From an uncultured Gammaproteobacteria bacterium (GTDB lineage: Bacteria; Pseudomonadota; Gammaproteobacteria; UBA4575), in NCBI GenBank assembly GCA_963976865.1, contig CAXBLY010000002.1, forward strand, positions 152,539 through 216,538: a DNA stretch of 64,000 bases, in the 5' to 3' direction. The notes below the pieces were generated by a model. That model searched no databases. It worked only from the letters and a program-made list of their open reading frames with translations, and was not told the DNA's origin. This document shows, in pieces, positions 15,226 to 50,078 of this stretch. Position 1 is the stretch's first letter; each line of letters opens with the position of its first letter. The position numbers and the translations under genes are program-made.

Positions 15226-16221
15226 CTAGAAGCCAATATTGATTGGCAACTCACTCAATTCTGAAAGCTGTTCTCTTAAGCTTAAAATATGCTCCTCCCA
15301 GTAACGTGATGTATTAAACCACGGGAATCCCAATGGAAAAGCCGGGTCATCCCAGCGCCTGGCTATCCAGGCTGAATAATGCAGCATTCTTAGTGTACGC
15401 AAACTTTCAATTAGCCTTAATTCATTTAAATCAAAATCAGCAAATTCATTATAGCCTTCTATTATTTCGCGTAGCTGTATTTGCTGCTCGTTTCGATCGC
15501 CCGAAAGCAGCATCCATACATCCTGTATAGCAGGCGCCATTCTTGAATCATCAAAATCGATAAAGTGTGGTAATTCATCTCGCCATAACATATTTCCAAT
15601 ATGACAATCTCCATGCGCACGAATATATTTTATATCCTGACTATCAGCCATGGCCTGATCTATAATTTTCAGAAGATCGTTAGTTAATGTTTCATAGGCA
15701 ATTTTAAGTTCATCGGGAATAAAATTATCCTTAATGTACTTAACACTGTCATGACCATAACTTTGACTATTGATTGCAGGACGAAATTCAAATGAAGATG
15801 CTGCGCCGATCATATGTATGCGCCCCAGGAAACGACCTAAAACAAGCAGGTTGTCATAATTATCCAGTTCCGGCGCCCTGCCACCTTTTCGTGGATACAA
15901 AGAAAATCGAAAATCACCATATTCAAACAGACTCAAACCCTGTTCATTTTTCATGGGCGCAACCACTGGCAGCTCTGCCTCAACTAATTCATAGCAGTAT
16001 TCATGCTCTTCCTTAATTTGTTGATTAGTCCAGCGACCTGGGCGATAAAATTTTGCGATAACCGGTTCATTATCTTCAATTCCAATTTGATAAACACGGT
16101 TTTCATAGCTATTCAAAATAGTGACACGACCATCCGTTTCGAATCCTATGCTATCTACTGCATCCAATATAAAACTTGGCCCAAGCGATTCAAAAGGATG
16201 TAAATCAGTTGAATTTTCCAT
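15226..16221 (-). CDS. srkA: Ser/Thr protein kinase SrkA/RdoA (YihE)
   Basis: LNSYENRVYQ, AKFYRPGRW, HGDCHIGN, DFDD and WIARRWDDPAFP. Confidence 0.92.
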   Translation of the reverse strand: MENSTDLHPFESLGPSFILDAVDSIGFETDGRVTILNSYENRVYQIGIEDNEPVIAKFYRPGRWTNQQIKEEHEYCYELVEAELPVVAPMKNEQGLSLFEYGDFRFSLYPRKGGRAPELDNYDNLLVLGRFLGRIHMIGAASSFEFRPAINSQSYGHDSVKYIKDNFIPDELKIAYETLTNDLLKIIDQAMADSQDIKYIRAHGDCHIGNMLWRDELPHFIDFDDSRMAPAIQDVWMLLSGDRNEQQIQLREIIEGYNEFADFDLNELRLIESLRTLRMLHYSAWIARRWDDPAFPLGFPWFNTSRYWEEHILSLREQLSELSELPINIGF

Positions 16222-16780
16222 TATTCACATCGTTTAAAAATTTAGTTGATTGAGAGGCATGATAGAAATGAGTCTGCCCGAGGAACTTTCTGGCGGCTGT
16301 AGAGAAATAACCATCAACCTGTTCTGAATCCGCTAGCTGCTGTATCAACGAATCGTCAACTTCACAGGACTTGACCAGACAGAGATGATTTGCAGATAGT
16401 TTACACGCGAGCCAGAGTGCTAAAGAATCTGACGTTGTCTGCCAGTTTTTTGGATAATCACATTCAGATATTACGTCAGAATATGGCAACCATATTGTTG
16501 AGCCCGTATCCTGGATATCTTTAAATGAATTAGCCACTTTTAGACTTCCATTAAGATTTGCTAACAGGCACCCATACTGTTGCATAGCCATTACCGCCAT
16601 ATCATGTGCAACGGCATCCGACAGATTCCACTGCTTATTCGCAGCACGTACCTGATCCGCAAATGGTCCACCCCCTGGCACAATCACAAGCGTTTGTTGA
16701 TGGATACGCGCAAGCTGATCACACCATTCTTTCAGGTGCGGGGATGCATATAAACTGCCTCCTATTTTGACAATAATCAC
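16205..16780 (-). CDS. Amino-acid-kinase-fold protein, MfnE/Orf21-like (methanofuran/methylofuran biosynthesis)
   Basis: VKIGGSL, VPGGGPFADQVR, AMQQYG and WQTTSDSLA; H4MPT cluster context. Confidence 0.8.
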   Translation of the reverse strand: MIIVKIGGSLYASPHLKEWCDQLARIHQQTLVIVPGGGPFADQVRAANKQWNLSDAVAHDMAVMAMQQYGCLLANLNGSLKVANSFKDIQDTGSTIWLPYSDVISECDYPKNWQTTSDSLALWLACKLSANHLCLVKSCEVDDSLIQQLADSEQVDGYFSTAARKFLGQTHFYHASQSTKFLNDVNNGKFN

Positions 16781-18156
16781 TATTGCCCAAAAAACCTGAA
16801 CATTGCAGCGGCTTTATCAAATGTTTCCTGATATTCCTCATCCACTTGAGAGTCCCACACCAGGCCTCCCCCTGCATAAAAATATGCCTGATTATCTTTC
16901 TGGATAATGGTCCTTATAGCAATATTAGTATCCATCTTTCGGTTAAAGCCTATATAACCTATGCTGCCACAGTATAATCCACGTCTGTGCGGTTCAAGTT
17001 CTTCTATAATTTCCATTGCTCTGATTTTGGGCGCGCCAGTGATTGAGCCGCCAGGAAAACATTCGCGTAACAGCTCAACAGGAGAAGTCTTATTCGGGAG
17101 CTTACCTTCTATAGTACTAACCAGATGATGCACTGTTGGATAACTTTCAATGTTGAATAACTTTGTCACCTTAACACTATTAACATCACAACATTTACTT
17201 AAGTCATTCCTCAATAGATCAACAATCATGACATTTTCTGCACGATCTTTTGTGCTGCTTTCCAGTTCCAATACGAGCTCATTATCAATTTTCTCATCTT
17301 TTGAGCGCGGCCTTGTTCCTTTAATAGGTTTCGTCTCCACTACGCCGTTATTCACCTGTAAAAAACGTTCAGGAGAAACACTTAAAACCTTACACTCAGG
17401 AATATTCATATAAGCACCAAATGGCGAAGGATTTATTTTTCGCAGATGTTGATATCCCGACCAGGAATCACCTTCGACCGGCACGTTAAATCGTTGCGCC
17501 AGATTTACCTGGTAACAGTCGCCTGAGCTTATGTAATTTTTAACTTTGGAAAACTTTTCAGCATACTGCTCTGCCGTCATATTGGACTGTATTTTATCTA
17601 ATGCTTTATACTCGCCATTAGAAGCAACATTACCCACCTGACTGACATTATCTATTATATCTTTCCAATTCAGGCGAACTCTTGGCTCTGAAAGATCCCC
17701 CACTAACACAGCCTTTTTCTCAAGATGATCAGCAATGTATGCCCAATGGTAAATACCTATTGCCATCTCGGGAATGCCAGTATCATCCAGCGCAGTACTT
17801 GGCATTTTTTCAATTCTTCTCCCCAAATCATAGGAAAAGAAACCTAGCGCCCCACCCGTAAACGGCAGCTCATCTGATTGAATAAAATTTGCTGATAGCT
17901 CATGCGCCAATAATTCAAATGGATCATCAGGAACAAGCTGTTGATTACCCCCTGTAGTGATTGTCGTTAATTTCCCTCGCGTCACAAATGTCGTTTTAGG
18001 ATAAGCAGAAAAAATATCATAGCGACCAAACTTGCTAACAGGCCTGCCACTATCAAGAAATATTGCCCACGGTTCGTGTGCGAATAGTGAAAAAACAGAT
18101 GTCACATCTTCAAAATAAGGAACACTGACACGCGTTAGTTTATTATTTCTGGACAC
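16780..18156 (-). CDS. pabB: Aminodeoxychorismate synthase component I
   Basis: GDCYQVNL, SPERFL, TKPIKGTRPR, ENVMIVDLLRND and PGGSITGAPK. Confidence 0.93.
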   Translation of the reverse strand: MSRNNKLTRVSVPYFEDVTSVFSLFAHEPWAIFLDSGRPVSKFGRYDIFSAYPKTTFVTRGKLTTITTGGNQQLVPDDPFELLAHELSANFIQSDELPFTGGALGFFSYDLGRRIEKMPSTALDDTGIPEMAIGIYHWAYIADHLEKKAVLVGDLSEPRVRLNWKDIIDNVSQVGNVASNGEYKALDKIQSNMTAEQYAEKFSKVKNYISSGDCYQVNLAQRFNVPVEGDSWSGYQHLRKINPSPFGAYMNIPECKVLSVSPERFLQVNNGVVETKPIKGTRPRSKDEKIDNELVLELESSTKDRAENVMIVDLLRNDLSKCCDVNSVKVTKLFNIESYPTVHHLVSTIEGKLPNKTSPVELLRECFPGGSITGAPKIRAMEIIEELEPHRRGLYCGSIGYIGFNRKMDTNIAIRTIIQKDNQAYFYAGGGLVWDSQVDEEYQETFDKAAAMFRFFGQ

Positions 18157-18165
18157 AGGAATGAA

Positions 18166-19182
18166 TTACTCGAAAACCAGCGAAACAGCGGGCGCACAAT
18201 CAGACGCATTGACCTGGTAACTGATACCTTCAGGAATAATAAAACGGGTGAAATCCTCATAATCCAGAGACATCGTCTTTGCTATCCTTTCAACCAGAAA
18301 TCTTCCTACACCTGCACCAACAACCATTGGCCTATCATCGCTAAACTTAAGTAAACTCTTTTTGACCATCTCTATTTGCTGGTCGGCAATGTATTGTGCG
18401 ACTGAAACCCATTCTTGTCTGTCCTCTTTTCGATAGTCTTCTCCAATCATGCGAGCAAGTCTGCGCATACTGGAGGTTTTATCTTTTGGCTGAGAATCCA
18501 GCGTATCACCATAGTCTGCATGAGATGGCAACCAGTCTAAAATCCGATAGACATCTGCAGACATGGAAAAATATTCTGCCATGAGTGGAATCCAGTCACC
18601 CTTGTAAGGTATTTTCTGACAAATTGTATTAACGCAGCTGCGAACCACGCCTGTATATACCAGTTCACCCGATCGTAACCTTTCAAAATCTGACACACCA
18701 TTTAACTGCAGTTGCCCATCCTTAATCAAGAGCACATCTGTTGTGGTACTTCCCATATCCACAAAAATAACAGTTTTATTTTTTTTGCTTACACAGCGTC
18801 CACTTGCAATCCAGTTGACAGATGCAACTGAAAGCGTGTCTAGCAATGCCTCCTTGTAATCCAGTAAACCGCGGCGCGAATAAAATCTGACGATATCCTC
18901 TGAAGAAACTTCCTCAAGAAAAACACGCACGATTTCTTTTACACCCTGATCACGGGAAAGAAATAAATCCACCAGCTCTCCCGTCATCGTGACATTGTGA
19001 GCACTTATATTGTCAGGAATTTTTTTTAAGGCTGTCTGTAACACAGCTACTAACTCGTCAAGTCCTTTCCACAGTGGACAGTCCCACTGCTGAACATGCA
19101 GTGTATTATCATCAATATAAGCCAGCTTGACATGAGCACCACCAATGTCCCAGCCTGCTTTATTAAATGCGTTTCTAGCCAA
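18166..19182 (-). CDS. Hydantoinase/oxoprolinase-family protein, MfnF/Orf9-like
   Basis: GWDIGGAHVK, TMTGELVD, DMGSTTTD and GELVYTGVVR. Start inferred at TTG 19182. Confidence 0.82.
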   Translation of the reverse strand: MARNAFNKAGWDIGGAHVKLAYIDDNTLHVQQWDCPLWKGLDELVAVLQTALKKIPDNISAHNVTMTGELVDLFLSRDQGVKEIVRVFLEEVSSEDIVRFYSRRGLLDYKEALLDTLSVASVNWIASGRCVSKKNKTVIFVDMGSTTTDVLLIKDGQLQLNGVSDFERLRSGELVYTGVVRSCVNTICQKIPYKGDWIPLMAEYFSMSADVYRILDWLPSHADYGDTLDSQPKDKTSSMRRLARMIGEDYRKEDRQEWVSVAQYIADQQIEMVKKSLLKFSDDRPMVVGAGVGRFLVERIAKTMSLDYEDFTRFIIPEGISYQVNASDCAPAVSLVFE

Positions 19183-20146
19183 GATGTACCTCAACAATTT
19201 TATTTTGTTGCATAATATTTTCAGGCAGTTTCTGATCAAGAACAGTTCTGATACATAACTCAGCAGGATTATCCATCAAGACTTCGCTCAGCCCTGCATA
19301 TGAAGAAGTTAAACGTGGATTAATATCAATGACAACATAAGATTCTCCTGTCTTAATTAAATCAACCCCGACATAGCCCGTCAAACCAGGCAGAGTCCTG
19401 GCAATATCATTACTGATGCTTCGCATTTTTTCAGTCACAGGCATCGCATTCACCTGACAGGTTTTAAGCTTTGGCTCGAGATCACCACTAAAGATTTGCC
19501 TGTTACAGGTAAGTGTTTTTGCATTACCAGCAAAACAAAGCAGGCTCAGACTTAAATGTTCACCGTCAATACAGGGTTGTACAACCCAGTTATTAAAATC
19601 ATCAATGCACGCCAGGCCGGATTTTCCAGAGTCGCATATTTTCAATCCTTCACAACCCACACCAAATCGACTTTTAATCACTACTTTACCTGTGTATTGC
19701 TGGGCTTCTGAATAGGACAGATTAGCTGCAGTCTTGATCCCTGCCGCAGACAGTTGTGTTGCACATTTAATTTTATCTCCAGCGATTCCAATACTTTCTG
19801 CATCACAATTAATCACAGGAATTTTTTCTTTTTCCAGTTGTGATACGAGAGACTTAAGCACACCCTCGCTTTCAGGCGCAATTATCCAGGTATAATTACT
19901 TTCATTTGCCAGGCGGTATACCGTTGTCAGATAGTCAGCAGAATTTTCGATCAGATGGTTTTCTATATTATTCAACGGCAAATCCACGCGTGAGTCCAGA
20001 CAGGTAATTAGCTGAATATCATTTATTTGCGAACAATCAGCCAGCACGGAATTGAGCATCAACAAGCCTTCTTGTTTTAATCCTTCTGGTAATGGATGAT
20101 TAGCAAAACCGCCACCGGTAATGAACTCAGTGATAAACAAACGCAT
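19175..20146 (-). CDS. ATP-grasp ligase, MfnD/Orf1-like (tyramine-glutamate ligase type)
   Basis: EFITGGG, IIAPESEG, KSRFGVGCEG, GYVGVDL and DINPRLTSSY. Confidence 0.82.
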   Translation of the reverse strand: MRLFITEFITGGGFANHPLPEGLKQEGLLMLNSVLADCSQINDIQLITCLDSRVDLPLNNIENHLIENSADYLTTVYRLANESNYTWIIAPESEGVLKSLVSQLEKEKIPVINCDAESIGIAGDKIKCATQLSAAGIKTAANLSYSEAQQYTGKVVIKSRFGVGCEGLKICDSGKSGLACIDDFNNWVVQPCIDGEHLSLSLLCFAGNAKTLTCNRQIFSGDLEPKLKTCQVNAMPVTEKMRSISNDIARTLPGLTGYVGVDLIKTGESYVVIDINPRLTSSYAGLSEVLMDNPAELCIRTVLDQKLPENIMQQNKIVEVHLG

Positions 20147-20149
20147 TTA

Positions 20150-20854
20150 ATGAAAATTATTCCTGTTATAGATTACCGGAAAGGCAATGTAGTACTAGCG
20201 CAATTGGGAAATCGTGATAGTTACCAGCCTGTTTCTTCAGCACTGTGTGATAAACCGGATATTAATAGTGTCATTGAAGGTATTTTAACGTTAGCTGAGT
20301 TCAAAACAATCTATATTGCGGATTTAGATTGCATAGAAAATCAGCAATTGGAGGAGAGTTTATGGCCTTCCCTGTGCTCCAGATACCCTGATATAGAATT
20401 TTGGATTGATCTTGGAAAACTCAGTCAACGCTGGGCCCAGTTTATGGCCAATATTTCCAATGCACGTCCTGTCATTGGCTCCGAATCCCATTCCAGCATT
20501 AAGTCATTAACGCTTAGTCTTAGTGCGTTGAATAATTATCGGCCATTGTTATCAATCGATATTAGACAAAGCAGGATTCTCGGGCCAGACCAACTGTTAT
20601 CCGGATTTGATAATTGGCCTGATGATGTCGTTATTCTATCACTAAGTCATGTAGGCAGTAATAGCGGCCCGGACTATGACTCAATCCGGAACGTTTCCAG
20701 TCATTTGTGCTCGCAGAATATATTTTACGGGGGCGGCACCAGAAATGAACAGGATATCAGACAACTTGCATCACTTAATATCAAAGGCGTACTCGTTGCC
20801 AGCAGTCTTCATTCAGAAAAAATTAACAAATGCTTTTTAGAAAAAGTCAGTTGA
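20150..20854 (+). CDS. HisA/HisF-like TIM barrel (Orf17-type, H4MPT/methylofuran cluster)
   Basis: MKIIPVIDYRKGNVV, IYIADLD, VGSNSGPD and YGGGTRN; start at ATG 20150 by family N-terminus. Confidence 0.82.
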   Translation: MKIIPVIDYRKGNVVLAQLGNRDSYQPVSSALCDKPDINSVIEGILTLAEFKTIYIADLDCIENQQLEESLWPSLCSRYPDIEFWIDLGKLSQRWAQFMANISNARPVIGSESHSSIKSLTLSLSALNNYRPLLSIDIRQSRILGPDQLLSGFDNWPDDVVILSLSHVGSNSGPDYDSIRNVSSHLCSQNIFYGGGTRNEQDIRQLASLNIKGVLVASSLHSEKINKCFLEKVS

Positions 20855-20860
20855 GCACCT

Positions 20861-22084
20861 TTACTTGGTAACCACTTTCAAGCCTTTCGCATTATTGTCA
20901 TTTTTCAATAACTGCCTCAGTACTGAGCGGCCTAAATCAGGCTGACTGAAATGCTTAAGTGGTGTCATGCCATGATTTTTTTTCATCTCGTCCAGACTGG
21001 GACCCTGATACTGACAGAAGGATTGTGTTGTCTCATAGGTCTGCAACTCAACCAGGCCTGGTAAAAACTCAATCAGCTGTTCCCAGATAAATATATTTAA
21101 CAATTCGGTGCTTGAACGCCAGCCTAAATCAGCGCAGACAAAATTTAGATTTTGGTGATCCAGTTTTTCAATAACATGTTTCTTTACAACTGACTTAAGA
21201 TAACCATAATCCACAACAAATCCTGTTAATGGGTCAATTCTCCCTTCAATCTTTACATGCAGCGCATAACGACCTCCATGTAGATTTTCACATTTTCCCG
21301 GATGGTCTGTTATAAAATGCGCAGAATCAAATACCAGTTCTTTACTAACCGTAGCACGCTGCACCTCTGCAAAGTAACGCTCAGAAACACAAGGCATTTC
21401 CTTTAAGTACAAAGACACCAGGGCTAATAATCTTTGCGCATCTTCCAGTGATTCAGTTCTGAATAAAGCTTTCTGAGTAGACGCATCATCTTCGAGCATT
21501 TTCCAGCGGATTTGATATTCTACAGTCAACTTATTTAGCAAAGAATTTATTTCATCATTGCGCGGCAAACTCAGGAATATATAACCATTGTGAAATTCCC
21601 CGGCCTGTGCAACTACAACCGCAAGGAGTAACTCAAAATTTACTTCAGAACTGTTGTTTGCAAATTTATGCTTATACGCAACAGGTGTTTTAATTGAATT
21701 ATTAGGCACCACACGATGGCTGGTAGCAGTGTAGGTATATTCCTGTCGGTACTGAAAACCATAAACTTGCAACTCGCGCAAATACCACAGCAATTCATCA
21801 AGTCTCCGCACGTCACTTTCCAGACATATAAAGTATTCATCCTCATGAAACGCCTGTGTTAATAATAACGCTTCAAGTATGGATGTCGCACGCACAGACG
21901 CCTGTTCTGCGGGTAATGAAAACTCCCCAACATCAGCAACTTTGTTGACCATCGATTCGTGCACCAGTAAATCCAGTGGCACATGATGACGAATTGCATA
22001 TTCCTGCAACGTCAGCCCGCAACAGCCACTCAGGTGGTGATTGTCCAGCTGGTCTACTTCTGATTTACATTCCTGACACTTCAT
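20861..22084 (-). CDS. Multidomain protein: N-terminal Zn-finger-like and LAGLIDADG-like regions fused to a C-terminal PTPS/QueD (T-fold) domain
   Basis: C-terminal domain has FDSAH, CENLHGGRY, VDYGYLK, LDH and YET (COG0720). N-terminus has CxxC...HHLxxCCGLTLQEY. The middle region is assigned by pattern only. Confidence 0.75.
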   Translation of the reverse strand: MKCQECKSEVDQLDNHHLSGCCGLTLQEYAIRHHVPLDLLVHESMVNKVADVGEFSLPAEQASVRATSILEALLLTQAFHEDEYFICLESDVRRLDELLWYLRELQVYGFQYRQEYTYTATSHRVVPNNSIKTPVAYKHKFANNSSEVNFELLLAVVVAQAGEFHNGYIFLSLPRNDEINSLLNKLTVEYQIRWKMLEDDASTQKALFRTESLEDAQRLLALVSLYLKEMPCVSERYFAEVQRATVSKELVFDSAHFITDHPGKCENLHGGRYALHVKIEGRIDPLTGFVVDYGYLKSVVKKHVIEKLDHQNLNFVCADLGWRSSTELLNIFIWEQLIEFLPGLVELQTYETTQSFCQYQGPSLDEMKKNHGMTPLKHFSQPDLGRSVLRQLLKNDNNAKGLKVVTK

Positions 22085-22112
22085 ATACTTACTTTACTGC
22101 TAAATCGCAGAC

Positions 22113-22149
22113 AAAAAAATACCCCGGATTGTAAAATCCGGGGTATTTT
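22113..22149 (-). terminator. Rho-independent terminator of fae
   Basis: 15-bp perfect stem AAAATACCCCGGATT/AATCCGGGGTATTTT with a 4-nt loop; T-run follows on the minus strand; 21 bp after the fae stop. Confidence 0.9.
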
Positions 22150-22170
22150 GTACTACGAAAAAGAGATTGC

Positions 22171-22698
22171 TTAGAATCCTTTGAATGGATGCTCTGCAGA
22201 ATCTTTCTTAGCAACAACTGTAGATGCTTTTGGCTCGTCTTTAATAGCACGCTCAATAGACTCTTTAACAGCTTTGTAGTTATTCTCGTAGATAGCTTCG
22301 TCGCTCTTGGCTTCCCAGTGAATGAATACACCAACACAGATGAAAATGTCGTCTGCTTCGTCAGCTGGAATAGTGCCGTCTTCAACACTGTCAGCAACTG
22401 CTTTAGCAACAGCAGCCTGAGCTGGACCAAACATTTGAACTGCTTGTGTAGCACCTTTGATGGTCACTTTGTTGAACATCATAGTGTTTGGTTTACAAGG
22501 AAGGTTAGGTGCAACAACAGCTAACAAAGTTGAAAAGCCATCTTTGTTGTTTACTAAACCGTTACAAAATGCTGTCTCAACTGCTGAACCACGTGGGCCC
22601 ATTAGCAAGTCGATGTGAGCGATTTCTGCCATATTGCCTGCTGGATCCGCGTCATTTACTAGTGACTCACCAACCATTACTCTGTTGACTACTGCCAT
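22171..22698 (-). CDS. fae: Formaldehyde-activating enzyme
   Basis: [37 protein letters not shown] and GVFIHWEA; AGGAG RBS. Confidence 0.97.
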
Positions 22699-22719
22699 TT
22701 AATTTCTCCTAATTAGTAT

Positions 22720-22751
22720 TGTTTGTTAACAAACAGCCGTAAAAATTTACG
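22720..22751. promoter_or_regulatory. Two adjacent inverted repeats upstream of fae
   Basis: TGTTTGTTAACAAACA (22720-22735, perfect) and CGTAAA-AA-TTTACG (22738-22751). Confidence 0.45.
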
Positions 22752-22831
22752 ATAAAAAAATTGTGTTATGGGCCCCTCCCTAATGAAAACTACTAGTAAG
22801 TCTTCACAACATAGTTCGTCCCTTATGCTTG

Positions 22832-41203: not shown

Positions 41204-41231
41204 GATTCCTGTTTTAATCCTCTATATAAAC

Positions 41232-41259: not shown

Positions 41260-41313
41260 ATATGACTGCTAGGACGTTTATTCGCTAAACGTCAGCCTAA
41301 CCTCTAGATTCAA

Positions 41314-42693
41314 TTACTGCTCTAATTGAGACATCATTGTATCTGAAGAGTTCGGCGCTTGAGAGTATAGCGAGTACGCACCAAATCTCATTTGATGTGC
41401 ACGGCCCAGCTTCAACTGATAGAAGTCAATTGTGAACTGGTGATCAAGCTTCTTGCCATTCCAGTGGTACAGCTTGAACCATTGCTCATCATCTTTACCA
41501 GTCTTGTCCCAGCTTCCTAACAGAGAAGTTGTGAAGTAAGCACGCTTACCATCCCAGCTTTGAGAGATCATGTTTACCTGTGAACCAATCTTGTGCTCAT
41601 AAGTCTGCTTGGGATTGTGTGGATCGCTGATATCAAAGTAACGAGTCTTTCCATCCATGAATGTTTGCACCCAAAGACCTTTATCATCAGCAGTGATTGA
41701 GATATCTACAGGAAGTGGTACTTTTGAAGGGTCACCTATATCAGCAACATCTTCAGCCTGCCACTCGCCTTTTTCATCCAGGTAAATCAGCCAGATTTTA
41801 GAAGTTAAAGCAGTAGTAGTGAAACAGTAGTTGTTGTCACCTGCCCACGCGCATCGTATTTCTAATGGTGCACCAGGTACGTCAAATACTTTCTTTGGCT
41901 TACGAGTGTGCAGATCCCAAACTACCATTGTATTACCAAAACGCTTCATGGCTTCCGGATCAGATAGCATCTGACCAAAGTCCATCATGTAGTTTGACCA
42001 TCCTGTGAACGATGATGTGAACATGGCATTAACACGTGGTAGTACACGTACATCATATCCATAACCATCAGCGAAGTTACCCGTCTTATGAGAACCGCGA
42101 AGGTCATCATCCGTTGGGAACCAGTGAGCAGCAATGAATTCACCTTCACTAGTGTATTCCGCCATGCCTGTACGTCCACCATGATCGACATTGTTAGACA
42201 GTGCAGAAACCATAATACGGCCAGGTAACGCATAGAAAGTATGAGGTCCAACCATACCGCCAGTTTTATCAACAAAGTTAGTGATCACTTTGTGTAACTT
42301 GGGTTCACGCGGATTTGAATGAACATCAAAAATAAAGATCTTGTTACTATCCAGACCACCAGCCCATAGGAAACGACGGTCATCAGATAAACCAGAGTGA
42401 TGGGCTTCATTGCGGCCACCAACAGATACAATGTGAACAACTTCGCCGTAATCATCTGCATCAGGGTTAACAGAAATTGTGACCAGCTTGTCTTGCTCGT
42501 CTCCCATTCCTTCAACACCCAAAGTCCATACGTATACAAAGTCTTCCTGACCTACGATCTTGGCCATGTATGGTGACATGCATGTCTCATCAGCTTGAGC
42601 TGTGCCGGGCATTCCACCTACTAATGCTGCTGCACCGAATACCGCTGAAGCGACTGCGCCTTTTGCCCATTTAAATGGAAGCATTTTTTTCAT
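41314..42693 (-). CDS. mtoX: Methanethiol oxidase (SBP56/SELENBP1 family)
   Basis: Signal peptide then DETC; EAHH, GPHTFYALPGR, FTGWSNYMMD (W232), GAPLEIR, LLGSWDK (W395) and LGRAHQM. The two putative TTQ Trp are 163 aa apart, as W211/W374 of Hyphomicrobium MtoX. SCO and MauG-like neighbours support the call. Confidence 0.92.
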   Translation of the reverse strand: MKKMLPFKWAKGAVASAVFGAAALVGGMPGTAQADETCMSPYMAKIVGQEDFVYVWTLGVEGMGDEQDKLVTISVNPDADDYGEVVHIVSVGGRNEAHHSGLSDDRRFLWAGGLDSNKIFIFDVHSNPREPKLHKVITNFVDKTGGMVGPHTFYALPGRIMVSALSNNVDHGGRTGMAEYTSEGEFIAAHWFPTDDDLRGSHKTGNFADGYGYDVRVLPRVNAMFTSSFTGWSNYMMDFGQMLSDPEAMKRFGNTMVVWDLHTRKPKKVFDVPGAPLEIRCAWAGDNNYCFTTTALTSKIWLIYLDEKGEWQAEDVADIGDPSKVPLPVDISITADDKGLWVQTFMDGKTRYFDISDPHNPKQTYEHKIGSQVNMISQSWDGKRAYFTTSLLGSWDKTGKDDEQWFKLYHWNGKKLDHQFTIDFYQLKLGRAHQMRFGAYSLYSQAPNSSDTMMSQLEQ

Positions 42694-43061
42694 TGTTTAA
42701 ACTCCGTAAATATTACTTAAAAGTAAACCTAATCTCGAATCAAGATATAAATACATGGTAACGTTTTAGGTCCACATAAACACACACCCACGTATGGGTA
42801 ACCAAAATCCAGTTCGATGTGCGACATTATGCCGCATCCAGCACTACTATCAAGTTCTAATAAGATACTAGTTGTCCTCTATCTGTTGAACGTAAAATAC
42901 TAAAATGCCTTGATTTATAGGGATATTTACTCATTACTGACTGAAATTTATTCATTATGACTACTTCGCCACTGTTAATTACAAATAATGAACGAAACTG
43001 CCGGACACTATTTCAGTCTCACACTTATTATTAATATGAAATAACCACTAAATTATTCAAT

Positions 43062-43634
43062 ATGCACACATCAGCCACTACCCTGTCAGCCCGCTTACTG
43101 CTTGTCATTATTGTATGCGCGTTCATGAGCATCACACATGCGAATACCCCTAAACTGGGGGGTGATTTCGAGTTGACCACTCACAAAGGCAAGCTGTTTC
43201 ATTTGAGCGACATAAAAGGAAAAGTTGGCATTATATTTTTTGGATTCACCCACTGCCCTGACGTTTGCCCAAATACCTTATTGGAAATTCAACGCCTGAT
43301 CGCAGCACTGGATGACCAGGCAGAGCAAATACAGGTACTCTTTATTAGCGTTGACCCGAAGCGAGATACACCAGAGAAATTAGATAGTTATGTTGCCTAC
43401 TTCAACAAGAATATAATTGGTTTGACGGGTTCAGAAGACGACATCGCCAAAGTACTGAAGCAGTTTAATGCCAGTGTGAAGTTCAGTGGTGACGTCAGCA
43501 CTGACAACTATAATGTCGACCACACTGCCAATATGTTTCTGATTGACCGACAGGGCAATATTGGCAGTATCATTCTTCCACGCACACCCTTTGCAGTACT
43601 GGAGCAACAGGTGCGCAAGCTGATCGCTCAATAA
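43062..43634 (+). CDS. SCO-family protein (canonical)
   Basis: FFGFTHCPDVCP, SVDPKRDTPE and DHTA. Confidence 0.92.
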   Translation: MHTSATTLSARLLLVIIVCAFMSITHANTPKLGGDFELTTHKGKLFHLSDIKGKVGIIFFGFTHCPDVCPNTLLEIQRLIAALDDQAEQIQVLFISVDPKRDTPEKLDSYVAYFNKNIIGLTGSEDDIAKVLKQFNASVKFSGDVSTDNYNVDHTANMFLIDRQGNIGSIILPRTPFAVLEQQVRKLIAQ

Positions 43635-44021
43635 TTAGTCATATTTGATATAGGCAAAACGCTGGTCATTGGGCACACCATCCAGGTCAGGCTCGTCCTT
43701 GCCTGGATTCCACTGGATAACTTCTTCAATCTTTTTCGCCAGTGCAAAATCTTTATTGGTCACACCTTTGGCGGCATGATTCATCAGCTTAACCACCACA
43801 AAAGCATATGAAACGGTTAAATCCGGATGATGCCATGCTGCTTCTGCCAGATGGCCCACGGTATTGACCACCATTAAAGTGCCTTTCCAGCTATTGGTCT
43901 TGTATTTACGTCTGATCCAGCCGTTTTCGTAGTACCACTTTGGCAATTCCTCAGACAGACGCAGTTCTATTTGCTCATCTGTATAAGTCTGTTCCGGCTT
44001 AATATCTCGCCACTTCGACAT
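43635..44021 (-). CDS. Pterin-4a-carbinolamine dehydratase-like protein (PcbD type of H4MPT islands)
   Basis: GHLAEAAWHHPDL, NHAAKGVTNKDFALA. Confidence 0.88.
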   Translation of the reverse strand: MSKWRDIKPEQTYTDEQIELRLSEELPKWYYENGWIRRKYKTNSWKGTLMVVNTVGHLAEAAWHHPDLTVSYAFVVVKLMNHAAKGVTNKDFALAKKIEEVIQWNPGKDEPDLDGVPNDQRFAYIKYD

Positions 44022-44173
44022 GACAGGCCTCCTTTTTCTAGATAGTACAAAATTTACTCACCGCGAAAATCGCGAAATTAATAAAACGATGATATACGCA
44101 TTCCATTAGAAATCACGTAAAATAACGAGCTCGCATTATCTCAAATAAAATTACTTAGGAATTCAGGCACATT

Positions 44174-45850
44174 ATGGACAAGGCTGTTACGCGCAAACGC
44201 AATAAAATGCGGGGTGAGCAACGTGGAAGAAACGTTAATCCTCTGGCTTTACAACAAGTTCACGATCTACTGGGTGACATGCCGATCCGACGCGATCTAC
44301 TCATTGAATATCTGCATTTAATTCAAGACAAATATAACCATATCTCAGCAGATCATATGACGGCACTCGCCAGCGTGATGAAACTGGCTACTACCGAAGT
44401 CTACGAAGTCGCCTCGTTCTATCATCACTTTGATCTGGTCAAAGAAGGCCATCATGCACCCCCGGAACTGACCATCAGAGTGTGCGACTCCGTTAGTTGC
44501 GAACTGAATAATTCCCAGCAGATTATTAAAGCACTGGAAGGAAAATATAACGGTGAAATCCGTATCCAGCCTGTGCCATGTGTGGGCCGTTGCGAACAGG
44601 CACCAGTGGCAGTGGTTGGCACAAATGCTATTCCATATGCGGATGTCGATAAAATCGTTTCGGCTGTAAACAACAAAGAAAAAGACGCTGTTGCACCGGA
44701 CTGTATTTCTTTTGAAGATTACAAAAAAGATGGCGGCTACGAAACATTAAACAAATTAATTAATGGCTCGCTTACTAAAGAAGATGTCATCACGACTCTT
44801 GAAGATTCAAATTTACGTGGACTAGGCGGCGCAGGATTTCCAGCCGGAAGAAAATGGAGAATTGTTGGCGATCAAGACGCACCAAGAATTATGGCAGTGA
44901 ACATCGATGAAGGCGAACCCGGTACTTTCAAGGATCGTTACTACCTTGAAAGAGATCCACACAGATTTTTAGAAGGCATGCTAATTGCCGCACATGTTGT
45001 CGGTACTGAAGCTATTTATATTTATCTGCGCGACGAATATGCAGGTGTGCGCAAAGCATTAACAAATGAATTAGACAAATTAAAAGCCAATCCCCCTCAT
45101 ACACTTCCGCATATTGAATTAAGACGTGGTGCCGGCGCATATATCTGCGGTGAAGAATCAGCAATGATTGAGTCCATTGAAGGCAAGCGAGGCATGCCTC
45201 GCCTGCGTCCTCCTTTTGTGGCACAGGTTGGCGTCTTTGGCCGCCCAACACTTGAACACAACATGGAAACATTATACTGGGTCAGAGATTTAATCGAGCG
45301 AGGCGCAGACTGGTTTACATCAAATGGCAGAAACGGGCGTAAAGGTTTGCGTTCCTTTTCTGTTAGTGGTCGCGTGAAGAAGCCTGGTGTGCACCTGGCA
45401 CCTGCAGGTATCACCGTTAAAGAGTTAATCGATGAATATTGTGACGGCATGCTTGATGGTCATGAATTTTACGGTTATTTCCCCGGAGGCGCGTCAGGAG
45501 GAATTCTTCCTGCCAGCATGGGCGACATTCCGATGGACTTTGATACTCTCAACGAGTACGGATGCTTTATTGGTTCTGCCGCCGTCATGATTTTCTCAAA
45601 TCAGGATAGCGCAAAAGCGTTGGCACACAATGCCATGAAATTCTTTTCACATGAATCATGTGGCAAGTGCACACCTTGCCGGGTTGGCACATCCAAGGCA
45701 GTGATGCTAATGGACAAAGGCAAGTGGGACCAGCCTTTAATGAAAGAACTTTCGCAAACCATGAATGATGCTTCAATTTGCGGTTTGGGTCAGGCAGCTT
45801 CAAACCCGATGCAATGCGTGATGAAATATTTTCCCGATGAACTCAAATAA
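44174..45850 (+). CDS. NAD-dependent formate dehydrogenase beta subunit (NuoE/NuoF-like fusion)
   Basis: CDSVSC...CVGRC (2Fe-2S); LRGLGGAGFPAG, DEGEPGTFKDR and YICGEESA; CGKCTPC...C (4Fe-4S). Confidence 0.9.
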   Translation: MDKAVTRKRNKMRGEQRGRNVNPLALQQVHDLLGDMPIRRDLLIEYLHLIQDKYNHISADHMTALASVMKLATTEVYEVASFYHHFDLVKEGHHAPPELTIRVCDSVSCELNNSQQIIKALEGKYNGEIRIQPVPCVGRCEQAPVAVVGTNAIPYADVDKIVSAVNNKEKDAVAPDCISFEDYKKDGGYETLNKLINGSLTKEDVITTLEDSNLRGLGGAGFPAGRKWRIVGDQDAPRIMAVNIDEGEPGTFKDRYYLERDPHRFLEGMLIAAHVVGTEAIYIYLRDEYAGVRKALTNELDKLKANPPHTLPHIELRRGAGAYICGEESAMIESIEGKRGMPRLRPPFVAQVGVFGRPTLEHNMETLYWVRDLIERGADWFTSNGRNGRKGLRSFSVSGRVKKPGVHLAPAGITVKELIDEYCDGMLDGHEFYGYFPGGASGGILPASMGDIPMDFDTLNEYGCFIGSAAVMIFSNQDSAKALAHNAMKFFSHESCGKCTPCRVGTSKAVMLMDKGKWDQPLMKELSQTMNDASICGLGQAASNPMQCVMKYFPDELK

Positions 45851-45869
45851 GGAAATGGAGTAACAATAA

Positions 45870-48629
45870 ATGGCAGCTAATCCAAAAGATTTAAAAGAAT
45901 TAAAAACCGTTGAGTTCTCGTTAAACGGAGAAAAAATTCACGCGTTTGAAGATGAAACAATTTTACAGGCCGCACGTAGAAACGGTGTTGAAATTCCACA
46001 CCTTTGTTATACCGATGGCATGCGCGCTGACGGCAACTGCCGTGCCTGTGTCGTTGAAATTGAAGGTGAGCGTGTACTTCAACCCTCATGTGTGCGCACG
46101 CCAACTGAGGGCATGGTCGTCAATACCGGTAATGATCGCGTACTTCACTCTCAGAAAATGGTGCTTGAATTACTTCAATCTGATATCGCTGAAAAAGAAT
46201 ACACTTTAAACAGTGAGCTTGATCAATGGTCACAAAAACTGGAAGTCGGTCTACCCCGTTTTGAATCGCGTCATAATCCACAGGCCGATCTTTCCCACCC
46301 GGCTATTGCAGTCAACCTGGATGCCTGCATTCAATGCACTCGCTGCGTGCGTGCATGCCGTGAAATACAAAACAATGATGTGATTGGCTACGCTAATCGT
46401 GGCTCACACTCGGAAATTGTCTTTGATATTGCTGACCCTATGGGTGACAGCTCATGCGTTGCCTGTGGCGAGTGTGTTCAGGCCTGCCCTACTGGCGCGC
46501 TAATGCCTTCCAATGAATTAGGTCTGCTTGAACCAGACAGAAAAGTGGAGTCAACCTGTCCTTACTGTGGTGTTGGCTGCCTGCTCACATTTAACATTAA
46601 AGATGAAAAGATTATTTATGTCGAAGGCCGCGATGGTCCGGCCAACAAGAGCCGCTTATGTGTTAAAGGCCGCTATGGCTTCGATTACATTCATAATGAT
46701 CGTCGATTAACCAAACCTTTAATTCGCAAGGAAGGTGCCGCTAAAGTTTCTAATATCGAAGCACTGACTGAAGAAGACATAAGTGCAATGTTCAGAGAAG
46801 CAAGCTGGGACGAAGCACTGGAATTTGCCGCCAAAGGACTACGTGATATCCGTGACGAACTTGGTGGAAACGCGCTCGCTGGTTTTGGCTCAGCCAAAGG
46901 ATCCAACGAAGAAGCGTACCTGTTCCAAAAGCTCATTCGTACCGGCTTTAAAACCAACAACGTTGATCACTGTACACGTCTGTGTCATGCCTCTTCTGTT
47001 GTTGCGTTACTAGAAGGTCTGGGTTCGGGGGCGGTATCCAATCAGGTCGCTGAAGTTGAAGACGCTGAAGTAATTGTGATTATTGGCTCCAACCCCACCA
47101 CCAATCATCCAGTAGCAGCAACCTTTATTAAAAACGCAGCACGCGCTGGCAAGAAATTGATTGTGATGGATCCTCGTGGCACTGAAATTGCGCGCCATGC
47201 TGATTACTTTTTGCAATTCAAACCAGATACTGATGTCGCCATGCTGAATGCCATCATGCATTCAATCATTAAACAGGGTTTGGTCGACAAGGAATTTATT
47301 GCCAATCGTACCGAAGGTTATGCAGAGCTTGAGCAACACTTAAAAGATTTCTCGCCAGAAGAAATGGAAAAAATCTGTGGCATTCCTGCTGAGACATTAC
47401 ATGAAGTAGCGCGTGTTTACGCATCATCCAAAGCATCAATCATTTTCTGGGGCATGGGTATATCACAACACATACATGGTACTGACAATTCTCGCTGCCT
47501 GATTGCACTGTCTCTCATTACTGGTCAGATAGGCAAACCTGGTACAGGCTTGCATCCGCTACGAGGACAAAATAATGTCCAGGGTGCTTCAGACGTCGGC
47601 CTGATTCCGATGGTTTTCCCGGATTATCAACGCGTGGACAACCCGGAAGCGCAAGCAAGATTTGAAAAACTGTGGAATGCCGAGCTTGACCCAAAACCTG
47701 GTCTGACTGTGGTTGAGATCATGGATGAAATTACGGATGGCAATATTTTAGGCATGTACATTGAAGGGGAAAATCCGGCAATGTCAGATCCTAATCTTAA
47801 CCATGCGCGAAAAGCACTAGCATCACTTAAACACTTGGTTGTTCAGGATATCTTCCTCACTGAAACCGCTTTGTTTGCTGACGTCGTCCTGCCCGCTTCT
47901 GCATTTCCGGAGAAAGATGGCTCGTTTACCAACACTGACCGTCGTGTACAGTTGGGCCGCAAGGCCGTCAACCCGCCTGGTGATGCCAGACAAGACTTGT
48001 GGATCATCCAGGAAATAGCCAAACGACTTGGCTGTGACTGGAGTTATGCTGGTCCTAGTGATGTATTTGCTGAAATGCGTTTAGGTATGGATTCAATTAA
48101 GGGCATGTCATGGGACCGTCTGGAAAATCATGATTCCGTGACATACCCATGCGATAGTCCGGAAGATCCTGGTCAGGGAATTATATTTATCGATGACTTC
48201 CCGACTGAAAGTGGTAAGGGCCGTTTAGTACCGGCTAAATTTACCAATGCTGATGAGCTTCCAGACAGCGAATACAATTTTGTATTGATTACAGGCCGTC
48301 AGCTTGAGCACTGGCATACAGGTGCTATGACCAGACACGCCTCAATGCTTGATGCTATTGAACCGGTACCTGTCGCATCTATTAATCCAAAAGATCTGGA
48401 AAAACTGGGCTTAAGCGCAGACGAGATGATTCGCCTGACTTCACGCCGCGGCAGCATCGAATGCTACGCGCGAGTTGATGATGGGTTGAGAGAAGGCCAG
48501 ATATTCATGCCATTTTGCTATCACGAAGCGGCCGCGAATTTGTTAACAACTGATGCGCTTGATCCGTTTGCTAAAATCCCGGAATTTAAATTCTGCGCAA
48601 TAAAACTGGGCGCTGTAGAAAAGCACTAA
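45870..48629 (+). CDS. NAD-dependent formate dehydrogenase alpha subunit (Mo/W-bisPGD, Cys ligand)
   Basis: N-terminal Fe-S motifs; CPYCGVGC, RLCHASS, LRGQNNVQG and AKIPEFKFCA. Confidence 0.93.
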   Translation: MAANPKDLKELKTVEFSLNGEKIHAFEDETILQAARRNGVEIPHLCYTDGMRADGNCRACVVEIEGERVLQPSCVRTPTEGMVVNTGNDRVLHSQKMVLELLQSDIAEKEYTLNSELDQWSQKLEVGLPRFESRHNPQADLSHPAIAVNLDACIQCTRCVRACREIQNNDVIGYANRGSHSEIVFDIADPMGDSSCVACGECVQACPTGALMPSNELGLLEPDRKVESTCPYCGVGCLLTFNIKDEKIIYVEGRDGPANKSRLCVKGRYGFDYIHNDRRLTKPLIRKEGAAKVSNIEALTEEDISAMFREASWDEALEFAAKGLRDIRDELGGNALAGFGSAKGSNEEAYLFQKLIRTGFKTNNVDHCTRLCHASSVVALLEGLGSGAVSNQVAEVEDAEVIVIIGSNPTTNHPVAATFIKNAARAGKKLIVMDPRGTEIARHADYFLQFKPDTDVAMLNAIMHSIIKQGLVDKEFIANRTEGYAELEQHLKDFSPEEMEKICGIPAETLHEVARVYASSKASIIFWGMGISQHIHGTDNSRCLIALSLITGQIGKPGTGLHPLRGQNNVQGASDVGLIPMVFPDYQRVDNPEAQARFEKLWNAELDPKPGLTVVEIMDEITDGNILGMYIEGENPAMSDPNLNHARKALASLKHLVVQDIFLTETALFADVVLPASAFPEKDGSFTNTDRRVQLGRKAVNPPGDARQDLWIIQEIAKRLGCDWSYAGPSDVFAEMRLGMDSIKGMSWDRLENHDSVTYPCDSPEDPGQGIIFIDDFPTESGKGRLVPAKFTNADELPDSEYNFVLITGRQLEHWHTGAMTRHASMLDAIEPVPVASINPKDLEKLGLSADEMIRLTSRRGSIECYARVDDGLREGQIFMPFCYHEAAANLLTTDALDPFAKIPEFKFCAIKLGAVEKH

Positions 48630-48649
48630 ATTAACGTTAACACAGCACG

Positions 48650-48678
48650 GGCTCTGCTGTTGATTTAGCAGCAGAGCC
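48650..48678. terminator. Hairpin downstream of the FDH alpha gene
   Basis: GGCTCTGCTG...CAGCAGAGCC 10-bp stem; no U-tract on the plus strand. Confidence 0.45.
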
Positions 48679-48875
48679 AAAATCCCGTAATTTTCTAATA
48701 TAACCTATAAATACAGGGTTATATCACGTCAACCAAATATCTCTTCCAACGTTGTTATCATTGAGAATATACATAAATACCTGGATGTATTCTCATACGC
48801 ATTAGGCATTGATGTACTTTATATATTCAGTGCTTGCCTGTAATCAAACGCCTATCAGGGCGAGGAGATTTAATT

Positions 48876-49172
48876 ATGACGACACATTTCGCCAAATTAA
48901 CAAAAGTAGCAGGAGTGGTTTTACTGCTTTCACTTTCATCGAATAGTTTTGCGGGCGGCCTTTACGGAAGTGTTGGCTATATTGATCATCCGATCAAAAT
49001 TGTGATTGGTCACAATGGTCATGGAAAGCACTACAAACACAGAAGCAATCACTATCGCCATTACAAGAAAGATTATTACGCTCATCGATACAATCATAGA
49101 CGCGCGCATCGTTATGAGCACAGAGTGCACCATTACGCTCCACCAAGGAGATACTGTAGATCAGGCTATTAA
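48876..49172 (+). CDS. Small secreted His/Tyr/Arg-rich protein
   Basis: GAGGAG RBS, ATG 48876, signal peptide ending SFA, low-complexity basic His-rich mature part. Confidence 0.7.
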   Translation: MTTHFAKLTKVAGVVLLLSLSSNSFAGGLYGSVGYIDHPIKIVIGHNGHGKHYKHRSNHYRHYKKDYYAHRYNHRRAHRYEHRVHHYAPPRRYCRSGY

Positions 49173-49194
49173 ACTTTAGCCTGGGTATTGATAG

Positions 49195-49214
49195 AGCCTC
49201 TCACGTGAGAGGCT
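49195..49214. terminator. Perfect 20-bp palindrome between convergent genes
   Basis: AGCCTCTCACGTGAGAGGCT followed by TT. Confidence 0.6.
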
Positions 49215-49238
49215 TTCCAAATACGGCGGTGTATTATT

Positions 49239-50078
49239 TTACCCTGACAATTGCTTGCACATTTTTATCGCATAACTGACATCAGCGGCCTGCCTGTTCT
49301 GCCAGACGTCATGAACTCTGAAAATTTTGGCGCCAGCTTCTACACCTAACGCGGTTGTGGCACAGGTTGCGGGCATACGCTGCGCAGGATCTTCAGTAGC
49401 ACAAATCTCACCCATAAACCGTTTGCGACTGGTCCCCAGTAATACCAGATAGTCAGTTTCACAAATTTTATCCAGTTGATTTAGCAACTCAAGGTTATGC
49501 TGAGTGCGTTTACCAAAACCAATACCAGGATCCAGAATAATATTATTTTTTGATAATCCCAGGTCCTGCATTTTTTGTGCTTGAACAAGCAGAAATTCTT
49601 TTACTTCTTTTGCAGCATTTTCATAGCTGGGGTTATCCTGCATATTATCAGGACGACCCTGCATATGCATAATGCAGTAAGGCACATCGCGTTCGGCAAC
49701 GAGTTTCATGAGATCTACATCATCAGTACCGCCAGTGACATCATTCACAAACCCTGCGCCTGCATCGAGGGCTGCTTCGGCAACATCACTAAGTGTTGTA
49801 TCTATACTGATAAGCACATCACTGGAAATTTCCCGGGATAAAGCAGAAATAACATCCAGAACTCGTCTTTTTTGCTCAGTGGCATCGACTCGCTCTGATC
49901 CCGGTCGTGTAGACTCCCCGCCAATATCAATAATATCTGCGCCTTCATCTATCATTTCCAAACCACGCGCAACCGCATCACGCGTACTCACGTAACGACC
50001 CCCATCAGAAAAACTGTCGGGCGTGACATTTAGGATACCCATAATTAATGGGCCTTTTTTATCTAGAAGTTTACTCAT
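49239..50078 (-). CDS. folP: Dihydropteroate synthase
   Basis: MGILNVTPDSFSDGG, DIGGESTRPG, SIDT, LDPGIGFGK, GTSRKRF and FRVHDV. Confidence 0.95.
   Translation of the reverse strand: MSKLLDKKGPLIMGILNVTPDSFSDGGRYVSTRDAVARGLEMIDEGADIIDIGGESTRPGSERVDATEQKRRVLDVISALSREISSDVLISIDTTLSDVAEAALDAGAGFVNDVTGGTDDVDLMKLVAERDVPYCIMHMQGRPDNMQDNPSYENAAKEVKEFLLVQAQKMQDLGLSKNNIILDPGIGFGKRTQHNLELLNQLDKICETDYLVLLGTSRKRFMGEICATEDPAQRMPATCATTALGVEAGAKIFRVHDVWQNRQAADVSYAIKMCKQLSG

Follow-up and report, generated by a model that had tools for sequence, protein, structure and literature searches.

When a gene for methanethiol oxidase lies beside a complete route from formaldehyde to CO2, do the two work together or merely share an address? 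The question is posed by a 64-kb stretch of contig CAXBLY010000002.1 (the window, below) from an uncultured gammaproteobacterium, in which open reading frames (ORFs) and NCBIfam/Pfam profile scans place a methanethiol and one-carbon (C1) gene set at 16.2-49.2 kb, on both strands. The set comprises mtoX with its helper genes, the fae, mtd, mch and fhcBADC genes of the tetrahydromethanopterin (H4MPT) pathway together with genes for its cofactors, and a formate dehydrogenase (FDH). The region is probably best read as a conserved chromosomal neighbourhood for dissimilatory methanethiol oxidation in an uncultured marine, partly animal-associated gammaproteobacterium, and not as an operon.

The route that this reading implies would begin in the periplasm, where MtoX, matured by a SCO1-like lipoprotein with a Cx5CP motif, a MauG-like di-haem enzyme, a canonical SCO1 and two thioredoxin-like proteins, would convert CH3SH to formaldehyde, H2S and H2O2. 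Fae, very highly expressed, would bind the formaldehyde to H4MPT, and Mtd, Mch and the Fhc complex would carry it on to formate with cofactors supplied by the adjacent genes. An NAD-linked FDH of the FDH1 type would then oxidise formate to CO2 with formation of NAD(P)H.

Persistent linkage of mtoX to the H4MPT pathway

How often do these genes keep company elsewhere? The survey took the 80 closest MtoX loci of species-representative genomes, all from uncultured marine or sponge Gammaproteobacteria, and sorted them by tblastn with the window proteins. Linkage was counted at the 60 loci whose flanks reach 8 kb or more on each side, a gene being linked if it lies within 10 kb of mtoX. H4MPT-pathway genes are linked to mtoX at 34 of the 60, in four architectures, and an FDH1-type enzyme at 21. 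Architecture A, that of the window, runs lepA-mbl-folP, fdhAB, pcd, sco1b and the mtoX operon, and then, convergently, fhcBADC and the RFAP gene. Architecture B has a co-directional fhcBADC-fdhBA array directly upstream of pcd-sco1b-mtoX and a second cluster, FwdD-FwdB-FwdA-Ftr-FwdC, downstream. Architecture C has a Fwd-type cluster only, downstream and co-directional, with FDH upstream present or absent. Architecture D is that of three Porisulfidus genomes, in which mtoX is followed by a radical-SAM gene and then by ATP-grasp, mch, mptN, citG and fae genes; in E and F the mtoX unit stands alone. The closest relative, L001, had seemed unlinked, and a contig walk shows that it keeps the same order around a 13.4-kb insert (L091:5847-18856).

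In the MtoX tree, architectures A-C form one clade of 46 rows, and D lies elsewhere. Since L010 (UBA1858, GTDB o__UBA4575) falls within the window's MtoX clade, the host probably belongs to the GTDB order UBA4575. Four MtoX homologues were sampled outside the clade. Three of them, including that of the methanotroph Methylotuvimicrobium KM1, have the mtoX unit and, for 10 kb around it, neither an H4MPT nor an FDH gene; the fourth, from a Sedimenticola metagenome-assembled genome (MAG), reads FDH-SCO1-mtoX on a contig that ends just past mtoX. Together, the survey counts and the outside loci indicate that the H4MPT-mtoX linkage is lineage-specific and persistent and has been kept through rearrangements, with shared descent explaining part of it. 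The physical linkage of the modules that the initial annotation had proposed is thereby borne out by the distances from mtoX to fae and fhc.

Several relatives depart from the window in their own ways. The Porisulfidus loci L035, L037 and L038 (for example L037:9992-17404) have no SCO1 or MauG gene adjacent to mtoX, their radical-SAM gene is of the PA0069 family, and one strand is kept through to fae. The second Fwd cluster lies directly downstream of the mtoX operon at L015:15936-21183 and also in L016, L018, L020-L023, L025-L034 and others. It encodes a FwdD-like subunit, FwdB (508 bits, cutoff 328), FwdA, Ftr and FwdC, and the window has the Fhc-type set only; to judge by its subunits, the FwdD-containing set could oxidise formyl-methanofuran directly to CO2. 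The L018 record is named 'uncultured Mycobacterium sp.', yet the mtoX/fhc/FDH region it carries is of type B and typical of Gammaproteobacteria, and the MAG is probably mislabelled or mis-binned.

Could the linkage be an artefact of assembly? The best DNA run holds one contig of 43,433 nt that has 0 differences to window positions 30000-49000 and a flat depth of 27.6, and contigs of independent studies bridge every junction. Those of X2, for example, cover 31652-36029 and 36612-38525, and those of X5, from a strain 98-99% identical, cover 30275-35072, 35070-41346 and 42652-44758. In TARA, JGI and ENA assemblies, 15 contigs encode the exact Fae protein, and from fhcD to the pilus genes their gene order matches that of the window. 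A chimeric contig, which would have undone the linkage, is excluded, as other metagenomes rebuild the same joints.

Two dominant transcripts and at least five transcription units

Which of these genes are used in situ? Five sequencing runs were guessed to hold RNA, as they are labelled by organism and not 'metagenome' and as their contigs, 100% identical to the window, are of very uneven depth. With Logan contig depth as a rough proxy, fae (22138-22970) reaches depths of 57, 119, 60, 25 and 19 in runs X7, X9, X10, X14 and X15, and mtoX (about 41255-42810) reaches 32, 26, 19, 4-13 and 5. The deepest piece is fae in all five runs, and mtoX comes second in four (X7, X9, X10 and X14). Almost all other genes have depths of 7 or less, the exceptions, in X7 only, being rpoE-rseAB (18), degP (12) and tlpA (10.5). 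Across the 64 kb, fae and mtoX are thus the sole consistently high peaks in the probable RNA runs, and the DNA runs are flat.

The ends of the RNA contigs outline a fae transcript from about 22975 to 22138 and an mtoX transcript from about 42810 to 41255. An extended -10 promoter-like site lies at 23017-22989, and a terminator with a 15-bp stem is predicted at 22149-22116. For mtoX, a promoter TTGATA-16-CATAAT is predicted at 42853-42826 on the minus strand, where the RNA contigs begin at about 42810; its -35 and -10 blocks are near-invariant in 12 type-A loci, with one differing column per block. The gap between mtoX and the SCO1 gene (41204-41313, minus strand) holds an intrinsic terminator or attenuator with a 13-bp GC-rich stem followed by a U run. 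The hairpin has a folding energy of -36.7 kcal/mol (z = -3.8; 0 of 200 shuffles match or beat it), and the RNA contigs end there, at about 41255-41296. This coincidence of RNA contig ends with predicted signals argues that mtoX and fae each have a strong transcript of their own. The mtoX helper genes have an RNA depth about 1/10 that of mtoX; roughly 10% of transcription reads through from mtoX into the maturation genes.

Taken whole, the 5' leader of mtoX is no more stably folded than its shuffled versions (z = 0.69). It holds a short hairpin (ACCCATACGTGGGT) at 42785-42800 on the minus strand that is conserved across type-A relatives and has no Rfam match; in L005 it carries an apparently compensatory change (GCCCA...TGGGC). 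Over the whole window, Rfam gave zero matches to known RNA families. Sigma-54 promoters were considered and rejected, as loose matches numbered 39 where 46 were expected, and the intergenic regions concerned had none.

Is the region then one unit, as the initial annotation had it? The modules are physically linked, but the region is not a single unit: genes lie on both strands, strong terminators after fae and mtoX bound the RNA contigs, and five or more transcription units, spread over the two strands, have promoters and terminators of their own. Nor is spacing fixed, as the gap between fhc and mtoX tolerates inserts of 3.4-13.4 kb.

Gene content of the neighbourhood

The ORFs annotated were those of at least 100 aa, and the score cutoffs given here are the curated (equivalog) cutoffs of the families. 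Each gene class named in the initial annotation was recovered at its place. The periplasmic SBP56-type methanethiol oxidase is encoded by mtoX at 41314-42693 on the minus strand and matches NF052453 at 759.1 bits (cutoff 650) over profile positions 1-407 of 408. Its signal peptide ends in ...GTAQA, and the predicted mature N-terminus, DETCMSPY, resembles the processed N-terminus DETXNSPF given for the purified Hyphomicrobium enzyme in PMC5739008. On the family score, the SCO1 and MauG neighbours and this N-terminus, the protein is predicted to be MtoX and to have its activity, with methanethiol as the presumed substrate. A second mtoX paralogue occurs in L042, L045 and L051 (OZ244982.1, OZ245760.1, CBDCUI01), without SCO1 or thioredoxin helpers or C1 neighbours.

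Downstream on the same minus strand follow a SCO1-like lipoprotein gene (40472-41203; SCO1-SenC domain), a MauG/MbnH-like di-haem enzyme (39112-40464), a CVPC thioredoxin-like protein (38569-39102) and a TlpA-like CPPC thioredoxin (37873-38463), the last three from profile scans, and a conserved unknown of 107 aa, from the ORF listing (37575-37898). All the helper proteins encoded at 37575-41203 have a signal or lipoprotein leader, and the order of the helper genes is kept in about 60 of the 80 related loci. The lipoprotein next to MtoX has the motif CSDLNGCP, in which Cx5CP replaces the canonical CxxxC; the second SCO1 (sco1b, 43062-43634, plus strand), found by profile scan, has CPDVC. Beyond it lies pcd (43635-44021, minus strand), identified by profile scan as a pterin-4a-carbinolamine dehydratase (PCD). 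The pcd-sco1b-mtoX arrangement is kept in architectures A-C, with PCD identities of 76-94%, and there pcd always diverges from the fdh or fhc operon. Pterin/H4MPT upkeep and molybdopterin upkeep are both possibilities for its role.

The FDH genes lie on the plus strand. The beta subunit (44174-45850) is a NuoE-NuoF fusion of 558 aa, with NuoE at residues 27-167 and NuoF at 177-557, and the alpha subunit (45870-48629) matches TIGR01591 at 778 bits (cutoff 666). Against the tungsten FDH1 structure of Methylorubrum, 7vw6_A, the alpha subunit scores 1239 bits over residues 12-913. The two-subunit, NAD-type enzyme is thus like Methylorubrum FDH1, and homology suggests that it would use NAD+ as electron acceptor and a W or Mo cofactor. 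Downstream of fdhA, a 112-aa ORF (48834-49172, plus strand) with a signal peptide encodes a His-rich secreted protein with a His/Tyr/Arg-rich tail (…GHNGHGKHYKHRSNHYRHY…); it is 46-66% conserved in close relatives and has zero family matches. In the Sedimenticola MAG (L094:3749-9626), an FDH1-type FDH with an adjoining FolE2-type GTP cyclohydrolase lies directly beside SCO1-mtoX, so the FDH-mtoX adjacency reaches beyond the window's clade.

At the other end of the region, about ten H4MPT/methylofuran cofactor genes at 16205-28727 are interleaved with fae, mch and mtd. The first block, whose gene order is identical on 15 independent contigs, lies on the minus strand except for one gene. It holds an MfnE-like kinase (16205-16780), PabB (16780-18156; TIGR00553, 384 bits, cutoff 328), the TIGR03123 H4MPT-linked C1 transfer/MfnF-like protein (18166-19239; 300 bits, cutoff 244), an MfnD-like ATP-grasp protein (19175-20146), a HisA/HisF-like gene on the plus strand (20096-20854) and a PTPS-domain protein (20861-22084). 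The MfnE-like, MfnD-like, HisA/HisF-like and PTPS assignments are domain-level matches under the equivalog cutoffs. Also on the minus strand, fae encodes the formaldehyde-activating enzyme (22171-22698; TIGR03126, 235 bits, cutoff 118), followed by a CitG-like gene (22832-23686) and a MptN/RimK-type ligase (23664-24575), both from the profile scans, then mch (24565-25533; TIGR03120, 413 bits, cutoff 229) and an ATP-grasp_3 gene from the same scans (25567-26748). Next come mtd (26672-27577, minus strand), an Mpt_N-type methylene-H4MPT dehydrogenase (PF09176, 118 bits), and the beta-RFAP synthase/MptG gene (27684-28727, minus strand; TIGR00144, 143 bits, cutoff 113.5). Against MtdA structures, Mtd reaches only 110 bits, and it may be of either the MtdA or the MtdB type.

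The fhc genes run on the plus strand. The fhcA (30282-31940; TIGR03121, 724 bits, cutoff 393), fhcD (31945-32844; TIGR03119, 429 bits, cutoff 293) and fhcC (32831-33661; TIGR03122, 217 bits, cutoff 131) genes exceed their cutoffs; fhcB (29011-30273; TIGR03129) has 261 bits, below the cutoff of 328, and its position and the gene order fit FhcB. A 90-aa SCO4226-like gene (33712-33984, plus strand) is co-directional with fhcBADC, and the L015 homologue matches PF14026 at 99 bits. The five-gene order fhcB-A-D-C plus SCO4226-like gene recurs in L091, and the window copy is transcribed, with a depth of 3-7 in the probable RNA runs. Genes of this type (PF14026, 'nickel-responsive') accompany mtoX in distant lineages (L093:9551-9826; L095:9594-9869); in Methylotuvimicrobium KM1 and one other genome the gene lies directly upstream of mtoX, beside a TetR gene.

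Inserts and neighbouring genes

How far does the module extend? The initial annotation had described a contiguous set of about 34 kb. Its gene classes are all there, and it is not strictly contiguous, being interrupted at 34148-37514 (minus strand) by three unrelated genes between fhc and the mtoX operon, for a GlpD-like FAD oxidoreductase, a GlpQ-like phosphodiesterase and an FGGY kinase. Among the related loci compared, this trio is found only in the window and, degraded, in L002, and is absent from L005-L013; its RNA depth is 0-2. It is a lineage-specific insert that lies outside the module. The gap between the fhcBADC-SCO4226-like genes and the mtoX operon (window 33985-37574) is nearly empty in L007-L013. 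In L001 it is filled by the 13.4-kb insert, which marks it as an insertion hot spot. That insert encodes MerC, TruD, Zn-ADH, YtkA, a 410-aa MauG-like protein and a 2400-aa giant with PA14, glyoxal-oxidase, MauG and Big_7 parts.

The region had also been drawn as far as 50078, the end of folP, the dihydropteroate synthase gene (49239-50078, minus strand; TIGR01496, 321 bits, cutoff 163). The gene is indeed present, and it is probably a housekeeping gene and not specific to the module, as relatives without C1 genes next to mtoX (L048-L062) keep the lepA-mbl-folP block as well. On the other side, the profile scan places the Na+-translocating NADH:quinone oxidoreductase (Na+-NQR) genes nqrF-A at 1-5403, 10.8 kb from 16205, in line with the roughly 11 kb noted before. 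The Na+-NQR was rejected as a part of the module, because a cation diffusion facilitator (CDF) transporter, a type IV pilus cluster and a kinase intervene and there is almost no RNA signal. The suggestion that NADH from the module feeds this complex accordingly finds nothing specific in its favour.

Repeats upstream of fae, fhcB and mtoX

Do the separate units share a control signal? The 8-mer ACTAGTAG occurs in three copies in the 64 kb, all upstream of fae or fhcB and in the orientation of the gene; the exact copies upstream of fhcB are at 28863 and 28886. A bipartite pattern, CTAGTAK-N12-18-TAGTAG, occurs twice in the window, upstream of fhcB and mtoX, against 0 expected, the mtoX repeat being CTAGTAT-N15-TAGTAG within 42826-42875 on the minus strand. 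The block CAACTAGTAT upstream of mtoX is kept in 6 of 11 aligned type-A relatives (L001, L003, L004, L007, L009 and L002), with L002 differing in the flanking base alone, and L005 and L006 carry one change each. Upstream of fhcB, CAAACTAGTAG is kept in L007 and L009. As a family-wide motif ACTAGTAG was rejected, because the exact 8-mer upstream of fhcB recurs in L007 and L009 only, and the bipartite pattern is found in none of the 80 related loci. The repeats are a possible shared control element, offered as a lead only.

What the neighbourhood is for

Does the neighbourhood serve methanethiol, or formaldehyde whatever its origin? The region might be a general formaldehyde or C1 island for any source (methanol oxidation by XoxF, or demethylation of dimethylsulfoniopropionate (DMSP), methylamine or betaine), with mtoX nearby by descent. 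We consider this unlikely. Several observations nonetheless favour it or weigh against a neighbourhood dedicated to methanethiol. Methylotrophs that lack mtoX have H4MPT, cofactor and fhc genes clustered in this order too (the Methylorubrum islands), and fae is highly expressed in methylotrophs generally, whatever the substrate. The units of the window are transcribed separately and partly convergently, between promoters and terminators of their own, and the unrelated inserts at the fhc-mtoX junction imply that close coupling is not required. No H4MPT gene lies within 10 kb of mtoX at 25 of the 60 related loci (about 40%) or at the three outside loci with full flanks, and shared descent in one clade could explain much of the conservation that is seen. 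Formaldehyde sources elsewhere in the genome are possible. Contig depth gauges expression poorly, and the repeats were defined post hoc, vary in their second half in relatives and, at fae, lie inside the transcribed leader. Other observations are hard to square with a general island. Four rearranged architectures, including the mch-fae arrangement of the Porisulfidus trio on a separate branch, keep H4MPT genes within 10 kb of mtoX, as upkeep by selection rather than descent would have it; mtoX and fae are jointly the dominant transcripts; and a study of UBA4575 has methanol dehydrogenase in other clades only (PMC8371827). The annotated window ORFs include no gene for a PQQ methanol dehydrogenase, methylamine dehydrogenase, hps/phi or the serine cycle, in agreement with the initial annotation, which had seen neither a methanol or methylamine dehydrogenase nor a C1-assimilation gene.

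The payoff could instead lie in sulfur or in detoxification, with MtoX clearing toxic methanethiol and feeding sulfide to sulfur oxidation while the H4MPT pathway and FDH dispose of the formaldehyde. The relatives Porisulfidus and Sedimenticola are sulfur oxidisers, sponge UBA4575 are reported to have sox genes and RuBisCO (PMC8941161), and many mtoX loci have no C1 genes nearby. Yet an NAD-linked, FDH1-type enzyme and a complete cofactor set would be a large outlay for detoxification alone, and no sqr, pdo, fcc or sox gene is found in the 64 kb, whereas mtoX clusters of Methylophaga carry pdo and sqr. As an account of the region in its own right we think this improbable; it overlaps and is compatible with dissimilatory methanethiol oxidation. 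Could the SBP56 protein be something other than a methanethiol oxidase, for example a selenium- or metal-binding protein, so that the apparent pathway is a coincidence? Relatives are labelled merely 'selenium-binding protein', and structures exist for just one homologue, an uncharacterised archaeal SBP. The score above the MtoX equivalog cutoff, the SCO1 and MauG context that defines the characterised mtoX loci and the mature N-terminus similar to that of the purified enzyme make such a coincidence very hard to believe. A neighbourhood for dissimilatory methanethiol oxidation, through which formaldehyde and formate would pass from one module to the next, remains the reading that we prefer.

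Methanethiol stands at the centre of the marine turnover of DMSP and dimethyl sulfide (DMS), and what removes it biologically is poorly resolved. A widespread uncultured lineage with mtoX beside a full route from formaldehyde to CO2 is a candidate for a non-assimilating specialist in burning methanethiol, and an mtoX gene with fhc, fae or an FDH1-type dehydrogenase no more than 10 kb away offers a genomic marker for such organisms. No new enzyme or mechanism is involved. A bolder proposal, tentative and in our estimate somewhat doubtful, is that in UBA4575-type and related marine and sponge Gammaproteobacteria the H4MPT/methylofuran pathway is not a methylotrophy module at all. It would serve solely as the downstream half of a unit that burns methanethiol, with ACTAGTA-type repeats at the promoters of mtoX and fhc providing joint regulation. 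A main energy source in situ would then be methanethiol from DMSP or methionine, with electrons drawn from both its sulfur and its carbon, and these bacteria would be an overlooked and significant sink for it in seawater and animal hosts.

Comparison with known systems

How much of this is new? A literature search found no paper on physical linkage of mtoX to H4MPT or FDH genes, and searches on Taurinisymbion with methanethiol and on Thioglobus found nothing relevant. Neither the conserved adjacency nor the strong expression of two of its genes appears to have been reported before.

The pathway genes of Methylophaga appear scattered, judging by their locus tags, and a TlpA-like gene is part of the mtoX unit there as in the window. 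In M. thiooxydans the same route has been described, from MtoX through formaldehyde, H4MPT (and tetrahydrofolate, H4F) and formate to CO2 by FDH, with mtoX highly expressed on DMS (PMC6548844). That organism differs from the window in having XoxF/MxaF and the ribulose monophosphate (RuMP) cycle and in mtoX clusters that carry pdo, sqr and sulP (PMC6548844). The methanethiol-to-CO2 route has been published for Hyphomicrobium too, and it is assumed in genome reconstructions, for example in a lucinid-symbiont preprint.

In Eyice et al. 2018 (PMC5739008), an mtoX-SCO1/senC-mauG operon is described for Hyphomicrobium sp. VS and Ruegeria pomeroyi DSS-3. The window shares with it the SBP56-type periplasmic oxidase, followed by genes for SCO1-domain and MauG-like proteins, and a similar N-terminus. 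Compared with that operon, the window unit adds a canonical second SCO1, a second thioredoxin-like gene, the 107-aa protein and pcd. It also sits between FDH and the H4MPT/fhc genes, whereas the gene-context passages of that paper name only SCO1 and mauG as neighbours.

The FDH is like Methylorubrum extorquens Fdh1AB (PDB 7vw6, 7e5z) in its alpha subunit and in the NuoE-NuoF fusion of its beta subunit, and unlike it in being divergently paired with the PCD gene. The H4MPT/methylofuran genes recall the 'archaeal-like' gene islands reportedly found in Methylorubrum extorquens AM1 and other methylotrophs by Chistoserdova et al. in 1998 and Kalyuzhnaya et al. in 2005. The set is the same as in methylotroph C1 islands (fae, mtd, mch, fhcBADC, mptG and ATP-grasp, CitG-, HisA/F-, PTPS- and kinase-like genes). 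Unlike those islands, the 64 kb here hold no methanol or methylamine dehydrogenase or assimilation genes, and mtoX and FDH are immediate neighbours.

Closest in kin is the UBA4575 'CMS clade', probably the same lineage as the window, for which Francis et al. 2021 (PMC8371827) proposed dissimilatory methylotrophy, with the H4MPT pathway and SBP56 in metaproteomes; they annotated RuMP in Methylophagaceae only and methanol dehydrogenase only in two other clades. Their account is one without gene linkage, FDH type or transcript structure. Both the pathway and the dissimilatory use of C1 compounds by UBA4575 with an expressed SBP56 protein are thus already known, and what the window and its relatives add to them is the conserved linkage alone.

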